Below, one piece after another: positions 1 to 6,955 of a DNA stretch of 6,955 nt. The DNA comes from a virus. Taxonomy: Duplodnaviria; Heunggongvirae; Uroviricota; Caudoviricetes. Every line of letters begins with the position of its first letter. The first letter of the stretch is position 1. The DNA lies in the IMG/VR virus record IMGVR_UViG_2684622618_000019, one strand, 5' to 3'. The notes under the pieces are model-generated. The model had not been told where the DNA came from. It searched no databases and worked only from the letters and a program-made list of their open reading frames with translations. A program made the translations under genes and the position numbers.

Positions 1-98
1 CCCAGGCGAACCAGCACCTCCGCACACGGCTGTGCCACATCACGGATATCCCCGGCCCGGGCATCATGCGTGCCCTGCAGATATCGGATCTTTGCCAT
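1..98 (-). CDS. hypothetical head-region protein, N-terminal 32 codons only (continues beyond window start)
   Basis: ATG at 98-96 on the minus strand, open in frame to position 1 (MAKIRYLQGTHDARAGDIRDVAQPCAEVLVRL...). Lies directly downstream of the capsid gene. No family recognised; the only strong SD is about 31 nt upstream, separated by a hairpin. Confidence 0.35.
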   Translation of the reverse strand, partial: MAKIRYLQGTHDARAGDIRDVAQPCAEVLVRL

Positions 99-106
99 AA
101 CCTGTT

Positions 107-128
107 ACGGGAGGCGCACGCCTCCCGT
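107..128 (-). other. GC-rich stem-loop between capsid stop codon and next start codon
   Basis: Minus-strand RNA ACGGGAGGC-GUGC-GCCUCCCGU: 9-bp perfect stem, 4-nt loop. No U-tract follows, so not a canonical terminator. Confidence 0.5.
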
Positions 129-142
129 CCTCCTTATCAGAC

Positions 143-2080
143 TCAGCCGCCGGACGCACTGCCGTAGTTCACTCCGGTGATCACCGCCACCGCCGCAGTA
201 CGGCGACGACGCCAGTTGATCCAGCGCTCCGCACGGATGGCCACGCTGCCTGTCTGGAACATGGAAACCAGCTCCACCGGGGACGGCGTGGTACTGTCGC
301 CGCCCGGCTCAGACTGCATTTCCAGTGATGCCTCGCGGGACATATCCACTGCCACGCCGCCGTCATCCGCCAGATAAATATCCGGGGCATTCACCAGCAC
401 CAGCTGGTCACCCACGTACTGGGAGACAATCACCGGCAGCCCCTGGAAGGAGCCACCCAGCAGGGTCATGTCCGGGTATTCCTTCTGACCCAGCGCATTT
501 TTACGCATGGACAGTGCCAGGGCATTGGTGCTGGACATCAGCCAGACCGCACCGGTGGGCTGCAGGTTTGCTGCCACAAACTGTCCAAACGCAGCCTCGG
601 CATCCGCATCCGGGTTACCGGTTGATGCCGTGCCCTTCACATCATGGGTGATGGACGCCGGGGAGACATCTGCCACTGCGGCTTTTTTCGGGTCCACAAA
701 GTCTGTATCCAGACGCGCCACCACCGCTTCCGCCAGCGCATTACGGACCAGTGCATCAGCAGCCGGACTGGAAAAACGGATCAATTCTTCCGTCAGTACC
801 GCAATGGCCGACACCTTCGCATGACTGAAGGTGATGGATTCAAAATCAAACTTCGTCAGGGGTTTTGCCTTACCCTCACCCACCCAGCCGGCAGCACCGC
901 CGGACACCTGGGCGTGCACACGGATATTGAATGGCACCTGACGAAGTGCAGGGATCCCGCCCTGACCAAATCGCCCGATAATGGTCTGCGGACGCAGGTA
1001 ATCAATAAAGTCCTGTGCGTATTCCTGATATTCAGACAGGCTGCCTGCCCACTGCGGATCCGTGGTGGTCCCCGCGCCCACTGCCGATTTCAGGACATGA
1101 TGCAGACGACTGTCATCCGGATACTGACGACGGGCCACTTCCAGGGCTTCAGATCGGACGCCTTTAGCCGCAGCCAGCGATTTGGCAAAGCGGGCGAAGC
1201 CAATCCCCTTATCCAGTTTCTGCTCCACACGGATCACCGGCGCAGAAGCCACCGCGGCCACATTCCCGTTACCGGCCTGTTTCACCGGCTGCGCCGTGGC
1301 GGCCTTACCGGCTTCCAGTTCACGCAGGCGCTTCAGGTGCGCATCCACCTGACGGATTTCCGCTGCGGTGTTGTCGTAATGCTCTTCCTCCTCCACATCC
1401 AGCGTGCGCCCTTCCTCTGCGGCTTTGGTCATGACCTCCTCAAGGGAGGCTGCCAGCGCTGCACGCTTGTTTTCAAAACTTTTAATCTGTTCGCCAATAT
1501 TCATTATGGTCTTTTCCTTATGAAAAACGGTTGTTGACTGTGCCGCAGCGCCGGCAGAAGATGCGATTTTCACCACCGGTTTCCGGTTGCCGGACGCGGC
1601 AGAAAACGGGCGGTCGTAAGATTTAATGGTCCGGATGGTGCATTCCGCATTCGCGGGCACGGTGACGGCAGACACCTCCATCAGTTCCCAGCGCAGAAAA
1701 TGCAGTCCGCCTCCGTCCAGAAAGGTGTATTCATGGGGACGGAAGCCCACGGACAGCCCCCTGACCAGCCCGGTCTTAATGGCCGCCCAGACCTCATCCA
1801 GCCGGGCAGCCAGTTGCGACGGCATATCCGGTACGGGCTTCACCAGTGTTGCCGTGATTTCCAGCCCTTCGCTGACCCGGCGCACCGTACACTGCCCCAC
1901 CGGGCGGGAATGGTCATGCTGCCAGAGAAACGGGATCGCACTGCCAAACTCCGCGCCCTCCGGCTCCAGGATGTCACCATCCCGATCCGGAGAAGGCGTT
2001 GACGCAATCCCGGTGATCACCCGTTCATCCTCACTGAAGGATTTCACCGTCAGCAGGGAACAGGCCCGTTTAAGAGTCAC
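143..2080 (-). CDS. prohead protease / major capsid protein fusion (HK97-like)
   Basis: 645-aa ORF with GTG start at 2080 preceded by AGGAGG at 5-nt spacing. The N-terminal ~190 aa carry a prohead-protease-like His region (LWQHDHSRP) and a Ser about 54 residues later (VRGLSVGF). From the internal Met at codon 193 (ATG 1504-1502, AAGGA 10 nt upstream) the sequence has a coiled-coil delta-domain-like start (MNIGEQIKSFENKRAALAASLEEV...) followed by a long HK97-fold-like capsid body. One uninterrupted reading frame. Confidence 0.8.
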   Translation of the reverse strand: MTLKRACSLLTVKSFSEDERVITGIASTPSPDRDGDILEPEGAEFGSAIPFLWQHDHSRPVGQCTVRRVSEGLEITATLVKPVPDMPSQLAARLDEVWAAIKTGLVRGLSVGFRPHEYTFLDGGGLHFLRWELMEVSAVTVPANAECTIRTIKSYDRPFSAASGNRKPVVKIASSAGAAAQSTTVFHKEKTIMNIGEQIKSFENKRAALAASLEEVMTKAAEEGRTLDVEEEEHYDNTAAEIRQVDAHLKRLRELEAGKAATAQPVKQAGNGNVAAVASAPVIRVEQKLDKGIGFARFAKSLAAAKGVRSEALEVARRQYPDDSRLHHVLKSAVGAGTTTDPQWAGSLSEYQEYAQDFIDYLRPQTIIGRFGQGGIPALRQVPFNIRVHAQVSGGAAGWVGEGKAKPLTKFDFESITFSHAKVSAIAVLTEELIRFSSPAADALVRNALAEAVVARLDTDFVDPKKAAVADVSPASITHDVKGTASTGNPDADAEAAFGQFVAANLQPTGAVWLMSSTNALALSMRKNALGQKEYPDMTLLGGSFQGLPVIVSQYVGDQLVLVNAPDIYLADDGGVAVDMSREASLEMQSEPGGDSTTPSPVELVSMFQTGSVAIRAERWINWRRRRTAAVAVITGVNYGSASGG

Positions 2081-2090
2081 ATCAGCCTCC

Positions 2091-2119
2091 TGAAAATAAA
2101 AAAACCGCCGCAGCGGTTC
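2091..2119 (-). terminator. candidate intrinsic terminator or attenuator between terL and the protease-capsid gene
   Basis: Minus-strand RNA GAACCGC-UGCG-GCGGUUU followed by UUUUAUUUU, starting about 25 nt after the terL stop and running straight into the SD of the next gene. The stem is short (4 GC pairs plus A-U and G-U). Confidence 0.45.
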
Positions 2120-2143
2120 ATGATGGTTACAGTGTGAACAGGG

Positions 2144-3805
2144 TTATATGAAAAAAACCGCATATTCTTTCTTTTTCGGTTCCGGGTTAAGGGACATCAG
2201 GGAGACCGCATTGAACAGCGCCATCAGCGGGTCAATTTTTCCCCGTCCACTGGCCTGTTTGGTGATAAGAATGGCGTTACCTTTAGGCTCCACCCGGGCA
2301 TTGCCGACACACCAGGCCATCAGGGGCTGGTCACCATGCACCAGCACCCCTTCAGCCAGTTTGCGCTCGGTGGTTTTAATGGCCCCGCCCAGTTTCCAGC
2401 CCTGGCTTATCCCCACCACAATTCCGTCGGGGATCCCGGCTTCCGCCAGTGAATCCAGAATCTGCCCCACCCCTGACGGGTCAATACCGATATGGTCCAG
2501 TAACTCAGCCTCATGAATGCGACGCACATATTCCGCCACTTCCGCCGTGTCATCCCCGACACGCCGGACAATGGTCATATCTCCACAGGCAACAAGATCC
2601 TGAAACCGGGACGCCTCGCTCTTCCGTCGGACCACCGCGGTTTCATGCGCCCAGGCATGGCCCCAGCCCAGCCATTCGCGGGTTTCCCTGTCACGGCCAA
2701 TCACGTACATTCCCAGCAGATCATCCAGGCCCCCGCCGTCAATCCCCACCGTCACCACATCAGCGCGCTGCAGGATATCGTCCAGGCTGACGCGCCTGCC
2801 CTGCTGCTCCCAGAAATCCGCACCCGCCCAGCGGTCAGAACGCAGGGCAAGACCAATTTCCACATTGGCATGTTTTGACATGAAGCCACGAAATGCTTCC
2901 TCACCAGCCTCCCGGGCTTTACGGTACTCCCGGTACAGAAAAGCCTCATCCACCGAATAACCGAGATTCGGGTTAACCATGGCGAGGTTTTCCATCAGCA
3001 GGTGAGCCCCGCTTTCCACCATTTCAGGAGGATGCTCAAAAATCACCGGCAGAAAGTGCGGATCATGAATTTTGCCGTCACGGACATCCCGGGCGTACTG
3101 CAGTTTCTGTCTGAACACCCCGGCTGGCGGCTCATTCGACTGGGTGGTCGTATACACCACAAACCCTTCCGGGCGGGAGGCAAGGCCGCCTATGGCTTCA
3201 CGTAACATGTCCTCCGCTTTGTACTGCTTGCCAAATAACCACAGTTCATCAATCAGCGTCCCCACGGACTTGATACCGGATACCGTATTCGGATCGGCAG
3301 CCACCACCTTCAGGGTGGTGTCCGTCACCCTGTGGGTGATGGTCCGGATATGTGTCTGCACCTGACAGAGGTCATCCAGATCATCGTCCCGTCGTACCAT
3401 ATCCCTGGCAGGGTTGAAGGCGTTAGCCGCCACCTCCACGGTCGGGGCCAGAATGGTGTAGCCCGCCGCCTGCCGCCAGTTCAGTAACAGCGCCGTCATC
3501 ATGATCCCGGCAGCCAGCGTGGACTTGCTGTTTTTCTTGGGGATAAGGATAAAAACTTCCTTGATATGGCGTACACCGGTCTGCGCATCGTAGGAGCCAA
3601 ACAGGGCCGCCACCAGGTCAAACACCCACTGTGCGCAGGACTCCCCGAACGTCGGGCTGCCCGGTGCATCCACAATCCGCAGTTGTTTAAAAATCGCCAG
3701 GGCATGTGCGGCCTGCTCCGGATAAATCGGAGCCGGAATAATCGACAGCCCCTTTTTCAGGCGCTCTGCCCAGTCCGGGCAGGCCGTGCTCCACACAGGT
3801 ATCAT
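2144..3805 (-). CDS. terL: terminase large subunit (Terminase_1 / HK97-type)
   Basis: 553-aa ORF. ATPase-type motifs IPKKNSKSTLAAG and LIDELW, nuclease-domain motifs VGIDGGG and KIDPLMALFNA. ATG 3805-3803 overlaps the terS stop as ATGA; GAGGG SD upstream. Confidence 0.9.
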   Translation of the reverse strand: MIPVWSTACPDWAERLKKGLSIIPAPIYPEQAAHALAIFKQLRIVDAPGSPTFGESCAQWVFDLVAALFGSYDAQTGVRHIKEVFILIPKKNSKSTLAAGIMMTALLLNWRQAAGYTILAPTVEVAANAFNPARDMVRRDDDLDDLCQVQTHIRTITHRVTDTTLKVVAADPNTVSGIKSVGTLIDELWLFGKQYKAEDMLREAIGGLASRPEGFVVYTTTQSNEPPAGVFRQKLQYARDVRDGKIHDPHFLPVIFEHPPEMVESGAHLLMENLAMVNPNLGYSVDEAFLYREYRKAREAGEEAFRGFMSKHANVEIGLALRSDRWAGADFWEQQGRRVSLDDILQRADVVTVGIDGGGLDDLLGMYVIGRDRETREWLGWGHAWAHETAVVRRKSEASRFQDLVACGDMTIVRRVGDDTAEVAEYVRRIHEAELLDHIGIDPSGVGQILDSLAEAGIPDGIVVGISQGWKLGGAIKTTERKLAEGVLVHGDQPLMAWCVGNARVEPKGNAILITKQASGRGKIDPLMALFNAVSLMSLNPEPKKKEYAVFFI

Positions 3806-4365
3806 CCGTTGCCCTCATTATCATTATTCACCACCAGGCGGGGTGGTGGTGGCACCGCAAAACGGTTAGCCGCTTTTTTCGCCGCGTCACCTTTTGCCGA
3901 TTTTTTACCGGCATCCCCTTTTTTGTGGTGCGTGAACTGCGCCAGCTTATAAGCCGCATCCAGCGCCAGCCTGGGGTCGGTATTAATGTTCTCCACCAGA
4001 AGACGCCCCATCGCTTTCACCGGATCGGGAAGACCGTCCTCCATATACTCAATACCAGGAGATATCACCACGGGCGGTGGCATCTCCGGATTTGTTTCGT
4101 CCGGCTGTGGTATTGCAGCCGCCTCACGGCGACGGGGTTTATCCTCCGGCTCTGATTTTTTCTGCCGATAAACAGGAACCTCATCCACCTCCACCGTCTC
4201 GCACTGTTTACGGGCTATAAACGCAAGCACCTCCGGATCTTTTGCCAGCTGCGAGCCTTTAACCCTGGCTGTCTTCGCCGAATAACCGGCGGCAAGGGCT
4301 GACGCTGTTTTGTTTTTCCCGGACATGAGCGCCAGCGCAAATTTTCGTTTTTGCGTTGTCAGCAC
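3802..4365 (-). CDS. terS: terminase small subunit (Terminase_2-like N-terminal DNA-binding region)
   Basis: 187-aa ORF with GTG start at 4365 preceded by GGGAGGAGG. N-terminal motif KRKFALALMSGKNKTASALAAGYSAKTARVKGSQL is typical of this terS family. Translationally coupled to terL by a 4-nt overlap. Confidence 0.8.
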   Translation of the reverse strand: MLTTQKRKFALALMSGKNKTASALAAGYSAKTARVKGSQLAKDPEVLAFIARKQCETVEVDEVPVYRQKKSEPEDKPRRREAAAIPQPDETNPEMPPPVVISPGIEYMEDGLPDPVKAMGRLLVENINTDPRLALDAAYKLAQFTHHKKGDAGKKSAKGDAAKKAANRFAVPPPPRLVVNNDNEGNG

Positions 4366-4439
4366 AGCCTCCTCCCGGGTCCAGAACGCACTCAGCCGGG
4401 TATGGTTCAGCCCATTTTTCCCGGCGTCTCATGCCGCAA

Positions 4440-4563
4440 ATGTTAACTGCTGCCTGGTTAACATTTGCTGAAAAAGCCTGTTAACATTTTTTCCGCACAA
4501 CAAACTGAATAATAAAGATAAAAACCGCAAAAATGCCCGGGCAGCCAGTTAACATGTTAACTG
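4440..4563. promoter_or_regulatory. array of CAGTTAACAT-type half-sites including an 18-bp perfect palindrome; candidate terminase recognition (cosB-like) region
   Basis: Half-sites at 4440-4447 (ATGTTAAC), 4457-4464, 4480-4487 (GTTAACAT) and the perfect palindrome CAGTTAACATGTTAACTG at 4546-4563. All sit in the 289-bp HNH-terS intergenic region. Confidence 0.35.
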
Positions 4564-4654
4564 CCCTGAAACGGGAATTTTTTCTCTGCGTGAGAGGGGG
4601 CGCGGTGTCCAGGGCGATCGTTTTTTTTCGCCGGATGATCCCCCCCGGGTCTGG

Positions 4655-5020
4655 TCACAGGCCAGTGATTCCGTCGGCCCTGAGCGTGCCATCAGGAAGC
4701 TCAGGCAACGTCGGATCAGGCATACCACTCGCCGCTTCACTCGCTGACTTCTGGCGATGGCATTCAGTACAGAGGGTCCAGAGGTTCGTCTCCTCATTAC
4801 CACCACCGAACTGAAGTGCAATGCGGTGATCGAGTTCACTGTCACAAAGGTCAACCACGCGTCTACAGAGACAACAGTGTCCGGCATCCCTCCGCCAGAT
4901 ACGACGTTTGAGGGAAACCCGGGCACTGCCACTGACACGACGCTGTTCCCCCCTCAGGACATTTATCCGCCGGGTGTTCAGAGTTTTGATTCTGCCCGGT
5001 AACGTACGAAGCACAGCCAT
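4655..5020 (-). CDS. HNH endonuclease (phage packaging-associated)
   Basis: 121-aa ORF; HNH core HCCLCRRVVDLCDSELDHRIALQFGGGNEETNLWTLCTECHRQK. ATG at 5020 with GAGGA 6 nt upstream. Position immediately upstream of terS is typical of HK97-like cos phages. Confidence 0.85.
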   Translation of the reverse strand: MAVLRTLPGRIKTLNTRRINVLRGEQRRVSGSARVSLKRRIWRRDAGHCCLCRRVVDLCDSELDHRIALQFGGGNEETNLWTLCTECHRQKSASEAASGMPDPTLPELPDGTLRADGITGL

Positions 5021-5061
5021 GTAAAATCCTCGCCATATAGCTTGTCACCAGAGGAAAGAAA

Positions 5062-5289
5062 ATGTCATCGAAAAACCGGCCCCGCAGAACAACAACCCGC
5101 AACATCCGATTTCCAAACCAGATGATTGAACAAATTAACATCGCTCTTGACCAGAAAGGTTCAGAAAATTTTTCTGCGTGGGTCATTGAATCTTGCCGCC
5201 GGGAGCTGGCAGCAGACATAAAATATGCCCGTCAGTTGACTATAAAAAAGAATGATACACAGTATGCTCTGCGATGGCTGTTCATATAA
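5062..5289 (+). CDS. YlcI/YnfO-like small protein (DUF3950-like), copy A
   Basis: 75-aa ORF, ATG 5062 with GAGGAAA SD. The core NIALDQKGSENFSAWVIESCRRELA is conserved at protein level with the fragment at 5738-5848 despite many synonymous nucleotide differences, which argues for real coding. Family name is from memory of E. coli prophage YlcI, not a search. Confidence 0.7.
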   Translation: MSSKNRPRRTTTRNIRFPNQMIEQINIALDQKGSENFSAWVIESCRRELAADIKYARQLTIKKNDTQYALRWLFI

Positions 5290-5420
5290 CTATTTCTTTA
5301 TATTGCTGAATTTATAAAAACTCACAGACATTAGCTGTATTAATTCCGAATTGAAATAATCAGCCATATAGAATAAAAATAAAGCATAACAATAATAATC
5401 TTCTACCCAATCAGTACATT

Positions 5421-5452
5421 ACTGCTGTGACTCCAACACGGCAGTTTTTTTA
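5421..5452 (+). terminator. intrinsic terminator (plus strand)
   Basis: ACTGCTGTG-ACTCCAA-CACGGCAGT (9-bp stem with one G-U) followed by TTTTTTT; about 130 nt downstream of the YlcI-like gene. Confidence 0.6.
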
Positions 5453-5468
5453 TTGAACAGATTCCAGT

Positions 5469-5642
5469 TTCTTCCACCATCGCACCGGACGGGCGACCAT
5501 GAGGGGAGAACGCCGCGCTCCGTTTACGCGGTAAACCCCGGTGTGTATCGTTTTTGATTATCCCCGCACACTCTCGCAGAGGAGTCTCCCTGTCGGGCTG
5601 CGGTCTCTGTTAATGCAGGAATACGGCGACGATACGGCGCAT
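5469..5642. repeat. 174-bp conserved non-coding element, copy A
   Basis: Direct repeat of 6286-6459 with 9 mismatches in 174 bp (about 95% identity). Flanking sequence on both sides is unrelated between copies. No reading frame is conserved between the two copies. Confidence 0.9.
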
Positions 5643-5651
5643 CAGCAAAAC

Positions 5652-5687
5652 TTAGTTCAGGCACTGAGTGCGGATATAGTCCTGTGC
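5652..5687 (-). CDS. 3' end of a second Rz-like i-spanin gene, truncated by the gap
   Basis: Minus-strand translation ...AQDYIRTQCLN-stop (TAA at 5654-5652) parallels the C-terminus of the Rz at 6723-6955 (...LQEYIRTQCIN-stop); the nucleotide stretch 5662-5684 matches 6733-6755 at 22 of 23 positions. Confidence 0.55.
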   Translation of the reverse strand, partial: AQDYIRTQCLN

Positions 5688-5737
5688 NNNNNNNNNNNNN
5701 NNNNNNNNNNNNNNNNNNNNNNNNNNNNNNNNNNNNN
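5688..5737. other. run of 50 N: assembly or scaffold gap of unknown true length
   Basis: Exactly 50 N. Genes on both flanks are truncated by it and cannot both fit into 50 bp. Confidence 0.95.
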
Positions 5738-5848
5738 AATATCGCCCTTGAACATAAAGGTTCCGGTAACTTTTCAGCGTGGGTTATTGAAGCCTGCAGA
5801 AGAAGGCTGTCAACAGAGCGTTCGGGTATGAATTACATAATTAAGTAA
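5738..5848 (+). CDS. YlcI/YnfO-like small protein, copy B, C-terminal part only (5' end lost in gap)
   Basis: Frame starting at 5738 gives NIALEHKGSGNFSAWVIEACRRRLSTERSGMNYIIK-stop (TAA 5846-5848), matching the core of the 5062-5289 protein. No in-frame start exists in the visible sequence left of the gap. Confidence 0.65.
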   Translation, partial: NIALEHKGSGNFSAWVIEACRRRLSTERSGMNYIIK

Positions 5849-5977
5849 CATGGTGTTCACAGAACACACAGTTACCGGACACATCAGTTTTCCATTCGTC
5901 CCCCGGCAGTACAGGCTTCCCGTCTGACGGGATAGCCTGAAAAAACACAGAAAATTATTTGTTATAATTAATATAAC

Positions 5978-6118
5978 TTACTCAAAAAAAAGCGACGAGA
6001 AAATCAGCATCAACGAGCAATAAGCGCCAATACGTGATAACAAATGGCAGCCATATTTATCTGCAGTATAAGCAATGGACAGGATAACCACACCAGAAAC
6101 CGTCAGCATAAAATCCAT
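5978..6118 (-). CDS. 46-aa hydrophobic small protein (candidate membrane peptide); not in the supplied ORF track
   Basis: ATG 6118-6116 with GAGGAAG 8 nt upstream, TAA at 5980-5978. Product MDFMLTVSGVVILSIAYTADKYGCHLLSRIGAYCSLMLIFSSLFFE has two hydrophobic stretches. Sits in an AT-rich insert present only in copy B of the module. Confidence 0.4.
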   Translation of the reverse strand: MDFMLTVSGVVILSIAYTADKYGCHLLSRIGAYCSLMLIFSSLFFE

Positions 6119-6285
6119 TTGAACTTCCTCGGACAAAATCGACTCATCTAAAGATTTACAGCTCTTTTTATTATCAATATGTTAAAAGTAAAATAAACAG
6201 ATGTTCAATAATACGAATACAAAAACGTGCTGAAAATCAATGAATCCATTTCTGTGTTATCAATTAATAGTGATAAACATCCGGC

Positions 6286-6459
6286 TTCTTCCACCATCGC
6301 ACCGGACCAGCGACCATGAGGGGACAACGCCGCGCTCCGTTAACGCGGTAAACCCCGGTGTGTATCGTTTTTGATTATCCCCGCACACTCGCGCAGAGGA
6401 TTCTCCCGGTCGGGCTGCGGTCTCTGTTAATGCAGGAATACGGCGACAATACCGCGCAT
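6286..6459. repeat. 174-bp conserved non-coding element, copy B
   Basis: See copy A (5469-5642); constant offset of 817 bp. Confidence 0.9.
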
Positions 6460-6474
6460 GAATAATAAGGTCGC

Positions 6475-6699
6475 TCAACACACTGGCTGTAATGCAGCGG
6501 ATACCATGCGGCATTTAGCGGCATTCATCGTACACTCAACGGTTAGCTCTTCATTCGTGGCATTCACCTGAAAGGTCCTGGAGTGTAATTGCGTACATTT
6601 ACCACTGAACGAACCTTCAACAAGAACACGACCACGCTGCAAAATACGGAACGGAATTGTTCCCTGAAAAGGCTTTACGGTTACCAATAATTTCTTCAT
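6475..6699 (-). CDS. 74-aa hypothetical protein inserted between Rz and the 174-bp element
   Basis: ATG 6699-6697 with GGAGA SD 6 nt upstream; the track's TTG at 6717 is less likely. Product MKKLLVTVKPFQGTIPFRILQRGRVLVEGSFSGKCTQLHSRTFQVNATNEELTVECTMNAAKCRMVSAALQPVC has 4 Cys and no recognised family. Absent at the equivalent position in copy A, where the Rz stop lies 9 nt from the repeat. Confidence 0.5.
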   Translation of the reverse strand: MKKLLVTVKPFQGTIPFRILQRGRVLVEGSFSGKCTQLHSRTFQVNATNEELTVECTMNAAKCRMVSAALQPVC

Positions 6700-6722
6700 G
6701 CATTCTCCGAATAACAAAAATA

Positions 6723-6955
6723 CTAGTTAATACACTGAGTGCGGATATATTCCTGAAGCATTCTCAATGCTGCCTGGTCGCTGATGATTCCGTCTCTGAT
6801 ACCGAGAACGTTTCGTCCAGCAACCGGAGAGAGTTCGACGGCGGCATCATTGCCCACGCCGGAGGTGCCGGTGGCTTCACGCACGGTACCGGGGCAGGTG
6901 GCGTTGATCCGCAGGCGCTTACGACCAGCGGCAACATCAGCACGCAGAGTTTCAT
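6723..6955 (-). CDS. Rz: i-spanin Rz, C-terminal 76 codons (5' end beyond window)
   Basis: Minus-strand frame from 6953 reads ...TGTSGVGNDAAVELSPVAGRNVLGIRDGIISDQAALRMLQEYIRTQCIN-stop (TAG 6725-6723), a lambda-Rz-like C-terminus. Contains Rz1 embedded in the +1 frame. Confidence 0.8.
   Translation of the reverse strand, partial: ETLRADVAAGRKRLRINATCPGTVREATGTSGVGNDAAVELSPVAGRNVLGIRDGIISDQAALRMLQEYIRTQCIN
6764..6955 (-). CDS. Rz1: o-spanin Rz1 lipoprotein, embedded in Rz
   Basis: 63-aa ORF MKLCVLMLPLVVSAC... with lipobox VSAC and the proline-rich stretch CVKPPAPPAWAMMPP, close to lambda Rz1. ATG lies at the window edge, so upstream context is unseen. Confidence 0.8.
   Translation of the reverse strand: MKLCVLMLPLVVSACGSTPPAPVPCVKPPAPPAWAMMPPSNSLRLLDETFSVSETESSATRQH

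Follow-up and report, generated by a model that had tools for sequence, protein, structure and literature searches.

The window, as we call the entire 6955-nt stretch of DNA analyzed here, carries on its minus strand a series of packaging and head genes that begins with an HNH endonuclease and breaks off at position 1 inside a small ORF. The HNH gene (4655–5020, 121 aa; PF01844 HNH, E = 5.3e-6; phrog_589), labeled DNase or HNH endonuclease in the records of prophage Sp10 and phage 2851, is the first gene of the packaging block. Beyond a spacer of 289 nt (4366–4654) lie the genes for the terminase small subunit, terS (3802–4365, 187 aa; PF03592 Terminase_2, E = 4.5e-8; phrog_641, E = 2.4e-68), and the terminase large subunit, terL (2144–3805, 553 aa; PF03354 TerL_ATPase, E = 2.2e-11; PF20441 TerL_nuclease, E = 3.8e-10; phrog_9, E = 2e-145); in the ORF listing, the stop of terS and the start of terL overlap by 4 nt. 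With both TerL domains present, terS directly upstream, and the HNH gene upstream of terS, we identified these genes as a phage terminase module. NCBIfam returned no family for terL, terS, or the small ORF (orf73) at the window edge. HNH genes adjoining cos and the terminase genes are a known feature, and one published account (PMC3592412) describes the HNH gene and terS as flanking the cohesive-end site; cos cleavage is stimulated by HK97 gp74 (PMC9410871). By analogy of position with HK97-type cos phages, the spacer between HNH and terS is a candidate cos region, at which the HNH, TerS, and TerL proteins would cut.

Positions 1 to 5687 of the window were 100% identical (5687 of 5687 nt, no difference) to prophage Sp10 of Escherichia coli O157:H7 Sakai, where the matching genes are ECs_1968–ECs_1975, and positions 1 to 5300 were 96.8 to 99.9% identical to BP-4795, 2851, and WGPS6. 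The window is a scaffold: a run of N (5688–5737) joins the Sp10-type part to DNA of another lambdoid lysis region (5738–6955). Within the window, we found no tRNA genes, and Rfam returned nothing credible, either for the whole window at the gathering score or for 5250–6955 at E ≤ 1. Sakai Sp10 is a lambda-like prophage of ∼51 kb with a portal, connectors, a full tail module, lysis genes, and a Q antiterminator, and the same block belongs to complete Stx phage genomes of 49 to 65 kb. Judged by its nucleotide identity to the late region of Sakai Sp10 and by synteny with it, the window falls among the Sp10-type lambdoid O157:H7 prophages. Past the stretch shared identically with the window, the portal region has a mosaic structure: strain 17B6-2 shows 100% identity over the window and only 96% over capsid plus portal.

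The largest head gene (143–2080, minus strand) is a 645-aa ORF that combines a probable HK97-type prohead protease (residues ∼1–165), a variable linker, a coiled-coil scaffold (delta-like) domain, and an HK97-fold major capsid protein (PF04586 and PF05065; phrog_617, E = 3e-261). It starts with GTG preceded by an AGGAGG ribosome-binding site, and phage records label it “major head protein/prohead protease.” Pfam places Peptidase_S78 at residues 48 to 152 and Phage_capsid at residues 386 to 635. The capsid assignment is clear, with PF05065 at 52.7 bits (cut-off 24.2) and TIGR01554 major_cap_HK97 at 78.3 bits (cut-off 27.5; residues 204–584). The protease domain scored above the cut-off in Pfam (Peptidase_S78, 34.7 versus 21) and below it in NCBIfam (TIGR01543, 46.4 versus 59). 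H55, D56, and S110 (GLS110xGF motif) were invariant in 12 homologues, and we take them, from HK97 gp4, to be the putative catalytic residues. A PDB sequence search with the fusion protein gave a marginal capsid match only (E = 0.0019). An AlphaFold2 model of the 645-aa protein, built from the 12-sequence alignment, had a mean pLDDT of 39 and was unusable for fold search; it contained a helical hairpin at 195 to 261 (pLDDT ∼70) and a low-confidence stretch at 141 to 193, and we put no weight on either.

Several features point to a second start inside this ORF, at ATG codon 193, which would define a nested, in-frame gene for a scaffold-capsid protein of 453 aa (143–1504, minus strand). The ATG at 1504 has AAGGA 10 nt upstream, and M193 was invariant in the 12 homologues, where the preceding 12 residues form the most variable, indel-rich part of the protein. 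A start codon with a Shine-Dalgarno-like tetramer was present at this position in all 26 fused loci, compared with 12.7% of background codon positions; one locus has TTG instead of ATG, and the start and ribosome-binding motif are kept from gamma- to alpha-proteobacterial relatives. In Diaphorobacter and in one Brucella locus, the protease and capsid genes are separate. The Diaphorobacter capsid ATG overlaps the protease stop (ATGA) at the position of codon 193, and in the Brucella locus, a Met a short distance upstream of that conserved motif begins the capsid ORF. We infer that the long ORF could be translated into a full-length protease-scaffold-capsid chain in small amounts and a scaffold-capsid chain from codon 193 in larger amounts, and that the full-length chain would bring a few protease copies into each procapsid.

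Two hairpins flank this gene. Directly before its ribosome-binding site, within the spacer that separates it from terL, lies a terminator-like hairpin with a 7-bp G+C-rich stem, GAACCGC-TGCG-GCGGTTT (2119–2102), followed by a T run (2092–2119 overall, minus strand). A scan of the region found five terminator-like sites where 5.3 were expected, so this hairpin is unremarkable by count alone. Its position and structure were kept in 15 other gamma- and beta-proteobacterial loci, with compensatory change at three of seven pairs, and it was absent from the alpha-proteobacterial relatives. It may be a terminator or insulator that would be read through by Q-antiterminated late transcription. Just 3′ of the capsid stop codon, a 9-bp G+C hairpin without a T run, ACGGGAGGC-GTGC-GCCTCCCGT, occupies 107–128 (minus strand); the fold of 150–90 on that strand had an energy of −22.5 kcal/mol (z = −1.8).

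The partial ORF at 1–98 (minus strand), which an earlier note on this DNA had left unassigned, corresponds to codons 1 to 32 of orf73, which lies between capsid and portal and encodes a 73-aa protein (phrog_829, E = 2e-39). The window ends inside this gene; the full orf73 is seen in Sp10 and phage 2851, where it overlaps the portal start. Gene callers skip orf73 in Salmonella, Serratia, and Pantoea, and Pfam has no family for it. We rejected the idea that it is a spurious ORF, as its translation is conserved in place: a homologue occupies the same position in 21 of 23 gammaproteobacterial loci (E down to 1e-17) and in none of eight other loci.

That note had drawn attention to the lack of a portal gene between terL and the protease-capsid ORF, and this observation holds, since only a 63-nt spacer (2081–2143) separates these two minus-strand genes, which therefore do not follow the canonical HK97 order of terL-portal-protease-capsid. 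No Pfam portal family matched any of the five main window genes or the three frames of 1–98, and a tblastn search of the entire window with the Sp10 portal as query returned noise only (best E = 0.009, 50 aa, antisense to terS). The portal gene of Sp10 is found outside the window, adjoining the 5687 nt identical to it: it starts 211 nt downstream of the capsid stop, which is ∼70 nt beyond window position 1, and encodes 454 aa (ORF L001, 11931–10567). This protein matched PF04860 Phage_portal (E = 3.5e-79, 266.7 bits, cut-off 39.1) over profile positions 2 to 321 of 321 and TIGR01537 portal_HK97 (365.2 bits, cut-off 112) over positions 2 to 343 of 343. Such end-to-end matches above curated cut-offs, for a gene in the same head operon, identify it as an HK97-family portal, and a PDB sequence search matched it to several phage portal chains of known structure (E = 1.5e-27 to 7e-12), among them the RcGTA portal, a member of the HK97 family. 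The window thus lacks a portal because of where its edge falls and because the gene order is not canonical, rather than because of a gap in the element. For this isolate, we expect the same portal on the basis of identical and near-identical genomes.

The order is shared widely. The closest known systems, Sp10 and the long-tailed Stx phages BP-4795 (Marienburgvirus) and 2851 and Stx2a_WGPS6 (Pankowvirus), have the gene content and order of the window, and in them the portal gene follows the capsid gene. Annotations of phages 2851, BP-4795, WGPS6, phi330, and Lys8385Vzw, and of strains 17B6-2 and E2348/69, show the order terL-fusion-orf73-portal. Of 93 phage records matched by a query that ran from terL through the portal, 92 covered at least 80% of it (BP-4795, 2851, and Lys8385Vzw among them), and of 1261 E. 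coli records matched by a capsid-to-portal query, 1249 covered it, corresponding to 1244 of 5426 complete genomes. We also examined 31 related loci from relatives at 47 to 78% protein identity (Salmonella, Serratia, Pantoea, Proteus, Diaphorobacter, Rhizobium, Brucella, Methylobacterium, and others), and in every one the fusion gene is followed directly by the portal. The recurring order is HNH-terS-terL-[protease-capsid]-orf73-portal-X-connector, and the full head module reads HNH, (candidate cos), terS, terL, the protease-scaffold-capsid ORF, orf73, portal, a repeat-containing protein X, head-tail connector, head closure protein, and tail genes. GenBank annotations of BP-4795, Sakai Sp10, and 2851 have shown this gene order for years, and an analysis published on the Sakai prophages already noted the unusual head organization and the presence of the portal. 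In that analysis, Sp6, Sp9, Sp10, and Sp12 had a slightly different head-region gene organization (PMC2669165), Sp10 was given a “+” for its portal, head, tail, packaging, and lysis functions, and marked Sp10 was shown to transfer to K-12 (Asadulghani et al. 2009, PMC2669165).

We conclude that the window almost certainly derives from the late operon, with its head and packaging genes, of an E. coli O157:H7 prophage that is lambda-like, long-tailed, and of the Sp10/BP-4795/2851 type, and whose portal is present ∼70 nt past position 1. Of the explanations offered earlier, this bears out the one in which the portal is encoded elsewhere, 211 nt past the capsid stop in DNA 100% identical to the window. 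Deletion of the portal, leaving a defective remnant unable to build heads, would fit the absence of a portal from the 6955 nt, and many O157 prophages are defective; no particles were seen from K-12 lysogens of Sp10 (PMC2669165). However, the same study scored the Sp10 portal as present and attributed the defect to a repressor without a peptidase domain (PMC2669165), so Sp10 is not fully wild-type for reasons other than its portal. All genome and phage records with this block that we examined have the portal at the same 211-nt distance, the window edge inside orf73 falls exactly where those records run on into it, and the order recurs in the 92 phage records, the 1244 E. coli genomes, and the 31 loci; we therefore consider a deletion extremely unlikely. 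Blocks of HNH, terS, terL, and capsid genes also occur in capsid-forming islands, and the window could in principle come from a satellite or island with its own capsids and terminase that depends on a helper phage for its portal. The one observation in favor of such an element is that the window itself seems to have no portal, whereas the identical DNA sits inside the ∼51-kb Sp10 prophage, which has its own portal, connectors, tail module, lysis genes, and Q antiterminator, and the same block is found in the complete Stx phage genomes. With portal, connector, and tail genes directly following in every identical or related record, and in the same order across Proteobacteria, a portal from another source is scarcely credible.

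Outside the window, we observed a tract of five or six G residues in which a one-base difference splits or fuses the portal and gene X: Sp10-type DNA has a 454-aa portal ORF and a separate 407-aa ORF, and 2851-type phages have a single 859-aa “portal.” A PDB sequence search gave nothing meaningful for protein X. We considered a programmed −1 frameshift at the G run and rejected it, as the G residues do not fall in the frame required of a canonical X XXY YYZ slippery site. The split raised the question of whether the portal is present but impaired in Sp10-type copies, as might be suggested by the single base that separates the G5 (split) and G6 (fused) forms and by the label “Portal protein (pseudogene)” given to split copies in Stx2a_F349, WGPS4, and WGPS8. 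Against this, the 454-aa product spans the whole portal profile (PF04860, TIGR01537), and the two-gene form, with a 4-nt ORF overlap, is the one present in those Salmonella, Serratia, and Pantoea relatives for which we inspected gene calls or junctions; at the junctions inspected, stop and start overlap as ATGA. The two-gene form is also that of BP-4795 and of Lys8385Vzw, which carries the same head module and forms long-tailed particles whose virions have been imaged (PMC6986202). Given its occurrence in these relatives and in a virion-forming phage, the split form looks ancestral and functional, and we regard an impaired portal as very unlikely. Phages 2851 and BP-4795 are infective according to secondary sources.

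We give an even chance to the combined proposal that the 645-aa ORF is two nested in-frame genes and that the G5/G6 tract likewise toggles the portal between the 454-aa protein and the 859-aa portal-X fusion. In the literature searched, the nested start and the G5/G6 toggle seem to be undescribed for Stx-phage head modules. The nested start, the G tract, and the hairpin bear on protease-to-capsid stoichiometry and on the form of the portal, in a head module that occurs in roughly one in five complete E. coli genomes and in many Shiga-toxin phages. As originally posed, the missing portal matters little, because the module is complete: the supposed anomaly dissolves with a portal directly after the capsid module, in an order common to characterized relatives. 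A portal that does not lie between terL and protease is no ground for calling an HK97-type module defective, and short windows can cut gene clusters at points that mislead annotation and calls of prophage completeness.

The order terS-terL-portal-protease-capsid, taken as the norm in the earlier note, is right for HK97 itself and does not apply to this lineage. The HK97 head module (gp74 HNH, terS, terL, portal gp3, protease gp4, capsid gp5) is built from the same protein families as the module described here, which shares with it the TIGR01537 portal, a probable S78 protease, the TIGR01554 capsid (whose N-terminal domain is scaffold-like), TerL, and an HNH gene beside the terminase genes. The Sp10-type order is terL, protease-capsid, portal, and, unlike in HK97, protease and capsid share one ORF and a small ORF and the repeat protein X flank the portal. 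A maturation protease, scaffold, and HK97-like capsid subunit encoded in one gene are also found in small actinobacteriophages (Microbacterium cluster EE, Arthrobacter AN/AX/FE, Gordonia CW/DM) and in Rhodobacter RcC phages (PMC7302621; PMC8601537). Against NCBIfam NF045541, “prohead protease/major capsid protein fusion protein,” the window protein scored 54 bits versus a cut-off of 525, and it therefore belongs to a different sequence family. Nested in-frame head genes are familiar from lambda C/Nu3 and Mu I/Z. Were codon 193 to serve as a start, the Sp10-type gene would resemble these pairs: a long chain would carry the protease, and a shorter assembly protein, made in larger amounts, would have the same C terminus. 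It would differ from them in that the two chains would have the capsid protein in common, and not a separate scaffold.

The head and packaging genes of the window lie on the minus strand and comprise an HNH endonuclease gene (5020-4655), terS (4365-3802; Terminase_2), terL (3805-2144; TerL_ATPase and TerL_nuclease), a 645-aa fusion ORF (2080-143; residues 48-152 match Peptidase_S78 and residues 386-635 Phage_capsid) and, at 98-1, the first 32 codons of a 73-aa ORF (orf73; phrog_829). The spacer of 63 nt between terL and the fusion ORF holds a 7-bp hairpin and T run (2119-2102), then AGGAGG and the GTG start. The earlier note had described terL followed by a protease-capsid ORF with no portal between them, and both its coordinates and its description were correct; a Pfam search of the five main genes and the three frames of 1-98, and a tblastn search of the whole window with the Sp10 portal, found no portal-like sequence.

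Prophage Sp10 of Escherichia coli O157:H7 Sakai is 100% identical to window 1-5687, as are many other O157:H7 chromosomes to window 1-5300, and the long-tailed Stx phages Stx2a_WGPS6, 2851, YYZ-2008, and BP-4795 match window 1-5300 at 96.8 to 99.9% identity. Downstream of the capsid ORF, Sp10 carries, in order, orf73 (the window's partial ORF at 98-1 is its first 32 codons), a 454-aa ORF, a 407-aa ORF (termed X), a gp6-like connector, a head closure protein, and tail genes. The 454-aa protein covers the whole of profile PF04860 (E=3.5e-79), scores 365 bits against TIGR01537 (portal_HK97; cut-off 112), and has sequence matches to several phage portal chains of solved structure, among them the RcGTA portal, a member of the HK97 family. 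The gene starts 211 nt past the capsid stop codon, which places it ∼70 nt left of window position 1; the portal appeared to be absent because of the window edge and a gene order unlike that of HK97. We conclude that the portal lies just outside the window and that the head module is complete.

The window itself is a scaffold, with a 50-nt N run at 5688-5737 marking a join. To the right of this run (5738-6955) is another lambdoid lysis-region copy rather than the continuation of Sp10, whose matches there are patchy. A small DUF3950 (YlcI/YnfO family) gene is present in two plus-strand copies (5062-5289 and 5684-5848), the second cut by the N gap, and a putative Rz1-like lipoprotein ORF occupies the right end (6955-6764). 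Flanking the gap is a 180-nt direct repeat of 94% identity (5463-5642 and 6280-6459), which sits in noncoding DNA downstream of the DUF3950 gene and had no match in Rfam; its copies probably represent one conserved intergenic element carried by two paralogous prophages.

Four lines of evidence establish that capsid-then-portal is the normal order for this lineage. The order terL, fusion gene, orf73, portal is annotated in phages 2851, BP-4795, WGPS6, phi330, and Lys8385Vzw and in strains 17B6-2 and E2348/69. Of the phage records matching a query that spanned terL to the portal, 92 of 93 covered at least 80% of it, and a capsid-to-portal query reached the same coverage (at least 80%) in 1249 of the 1261 matching E. 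coli records, corresponding to 1244 of 5426 complete genomes. Outside E. coli, we compared Salmonella, Serratia, and Pantoea, whose fusion-protein homologues are 73 to 78% identical, and 28 further loci, one genome per species and down to 47% identity, including Proteus, Diaphorobacter, Rhizobium, Brucella, Methylobacterium, and Haematobacter. The portal directly follows the fusion gene in all 31 related loci, and a homologue of X follows the portal in 29, then a connector in most.

To account for the missing gene, it had been proposed that the portal is encoded elsewhere, that it was deleted and the prophage is defective, or that it is borrowed from another source. The first of these held, since the Sp10 portal begins just past the window edge, immediately after the capsid module and in an order common to characterized relatives, the very arrangement that the earlier note had named as speaking against its concern. 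Sp10 was scored '+' for portal, head, tails, packaging, and lysis by Asadulghani et al. 2009 (PMC2669165), where all morphogenetic genes were conserved only in Sp8, Sp10, and Sp11, and head-region gene organization was slightly different in Sp6, Sp9, Sp10, and Sp12. Sp10 excises, and low-frequency transfer to K-12 is possible; its recognized defect is a repressor without a peptidase domain, and no particles were seen from K-12 lysogens (PMC2669165). Lys8385Vzw, which has the same head module as the window block, yielded, on induction, particles that imaging showed to be long-tailed, with a head of 84 nm (PMC6986202). Given the conserved order, the '+' score of the Sp10 portal, and the Lys8385Vzw particles, a deleted or borrowed portal is without support. 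The element belongs to a known prophage type whose head module is complete; the observation is accurate but ordinary.

Beyond the window, the portal and X occur in two forms that differ by one G in a G run (about 10570-10590 in our Sp10 coordinates, L001; roughly 1.4 kb beyond position 1). Five Gs give the 454-aa portal and the 407-aa X with an ATGA overlap, whereas six give a single 859-aa ORF. The split form was found in Sp10, BP-4795, Lys8385Vzw, and the relatives outside E. coli for which gene calls or junctions were read, and the fused form (an 859-aa 'portal') in 2851, WGPS6, 17B6-2, and E2348/69; the split form is probably ancestral and functional. Protein X (L001 9347-10570, outside the window) begins with a helical part, followed by about 3.5 copies of a ∼54-aa repeat, and its C-terminal part gave a weak CBM_5_12-like match. 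Its repeat number differs between phages, with overall lengths of 245 to 461 aa, and searches of Pfam and of PDB sequences returned no family above cut-off and no solved structure. In E. coli, the last 55 nt of orf73 (window 1-98, minus strand; L001 11877-12098) overlap the portal start; in Salmonella, Serratia, and Pantoea the ORF is missing from gene calls, although its translation is conserved there.

The block is built of HK97-family parts in the order HNH, terS, terL, protease-scaffold-capsid, orf73, portal, X, connectors. By analogy with HK97 biochemistry (PMC3592412; PMC9410871; Kala et al. 2014 as cited in PMC9410871), HNH, TerS, and TerL would cut concatemers at a cos site, probably located in the spacer of 289 nt between HNH and terS. 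Fusion of protease, scaffold, and capsid in a single gene has precedents (PMC7302621, PMC8601537) and is also represented in NCBIfam by NF045541; the covalent link to the capsid subunit would carry the protease into the procapsid. Because one would not expect a terminator immediately ahead of the structural gene in greatest demand, the terminator-like hairpin and T run directly upstream of the capsid ribosome-binding site (2092-2119, minus strand) may be an insulator, read through only by antiterminated transcription. Another 15 gamma- and beta-proteobacterial loci retain it at the same place and with the same structure, three of its seven pairs showing compensatory change, and it is absent from the alpha-proteobacterial relatives compared. 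The capsid stop is immediately followed by a strong 9-bp G+C hairpin (107-128, minus strand) that has no T run; from this position before orf73 and the portal, it might reduce output of the low-copy portal compared with that of capsid protein.

Codon 193 of the fusion ORF is an in-frame ATG (window 1504, minus strand) with AAGGA 10 nt upstream. M193 is invariant in 12 homologues, and the 12 residues before it are the protein's most variable, indel-rich stretch. A start codon with a Shine-Dalgarno-like tetramer (-18 to -5) occurs here in 26 of 26 fused-ORF loci, which are related rather than independent samples, versus a background rate of 12.7% across codon positions of these genes; at one locus the ATG is replaced by TTG, with the motif retained. 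Protease and capsid are separate genes in Diaphorobacter, where the protease stop and the capsid start share an ATGA at the codon-193 position, and in a second Brucella locus, where the first residue of the capsid ORF is a Met a short way ahead of the same conserved motif. The TIGR01554 alignment begins at residue 204, profile position 3. This sequence pattern suggests that the fusion ORF is a pair of nested genes whose products are the whole protease-capsid chain and a capsid chain of shorter length. On the simplest reading, one frame would yield mainly a 453-aa scaffold-capsid chain, with the full-length chain as the minor product, an arrangement that would be analogous to the nested C/Nu3 pair of lambda, in which two products likewise come from one frame.
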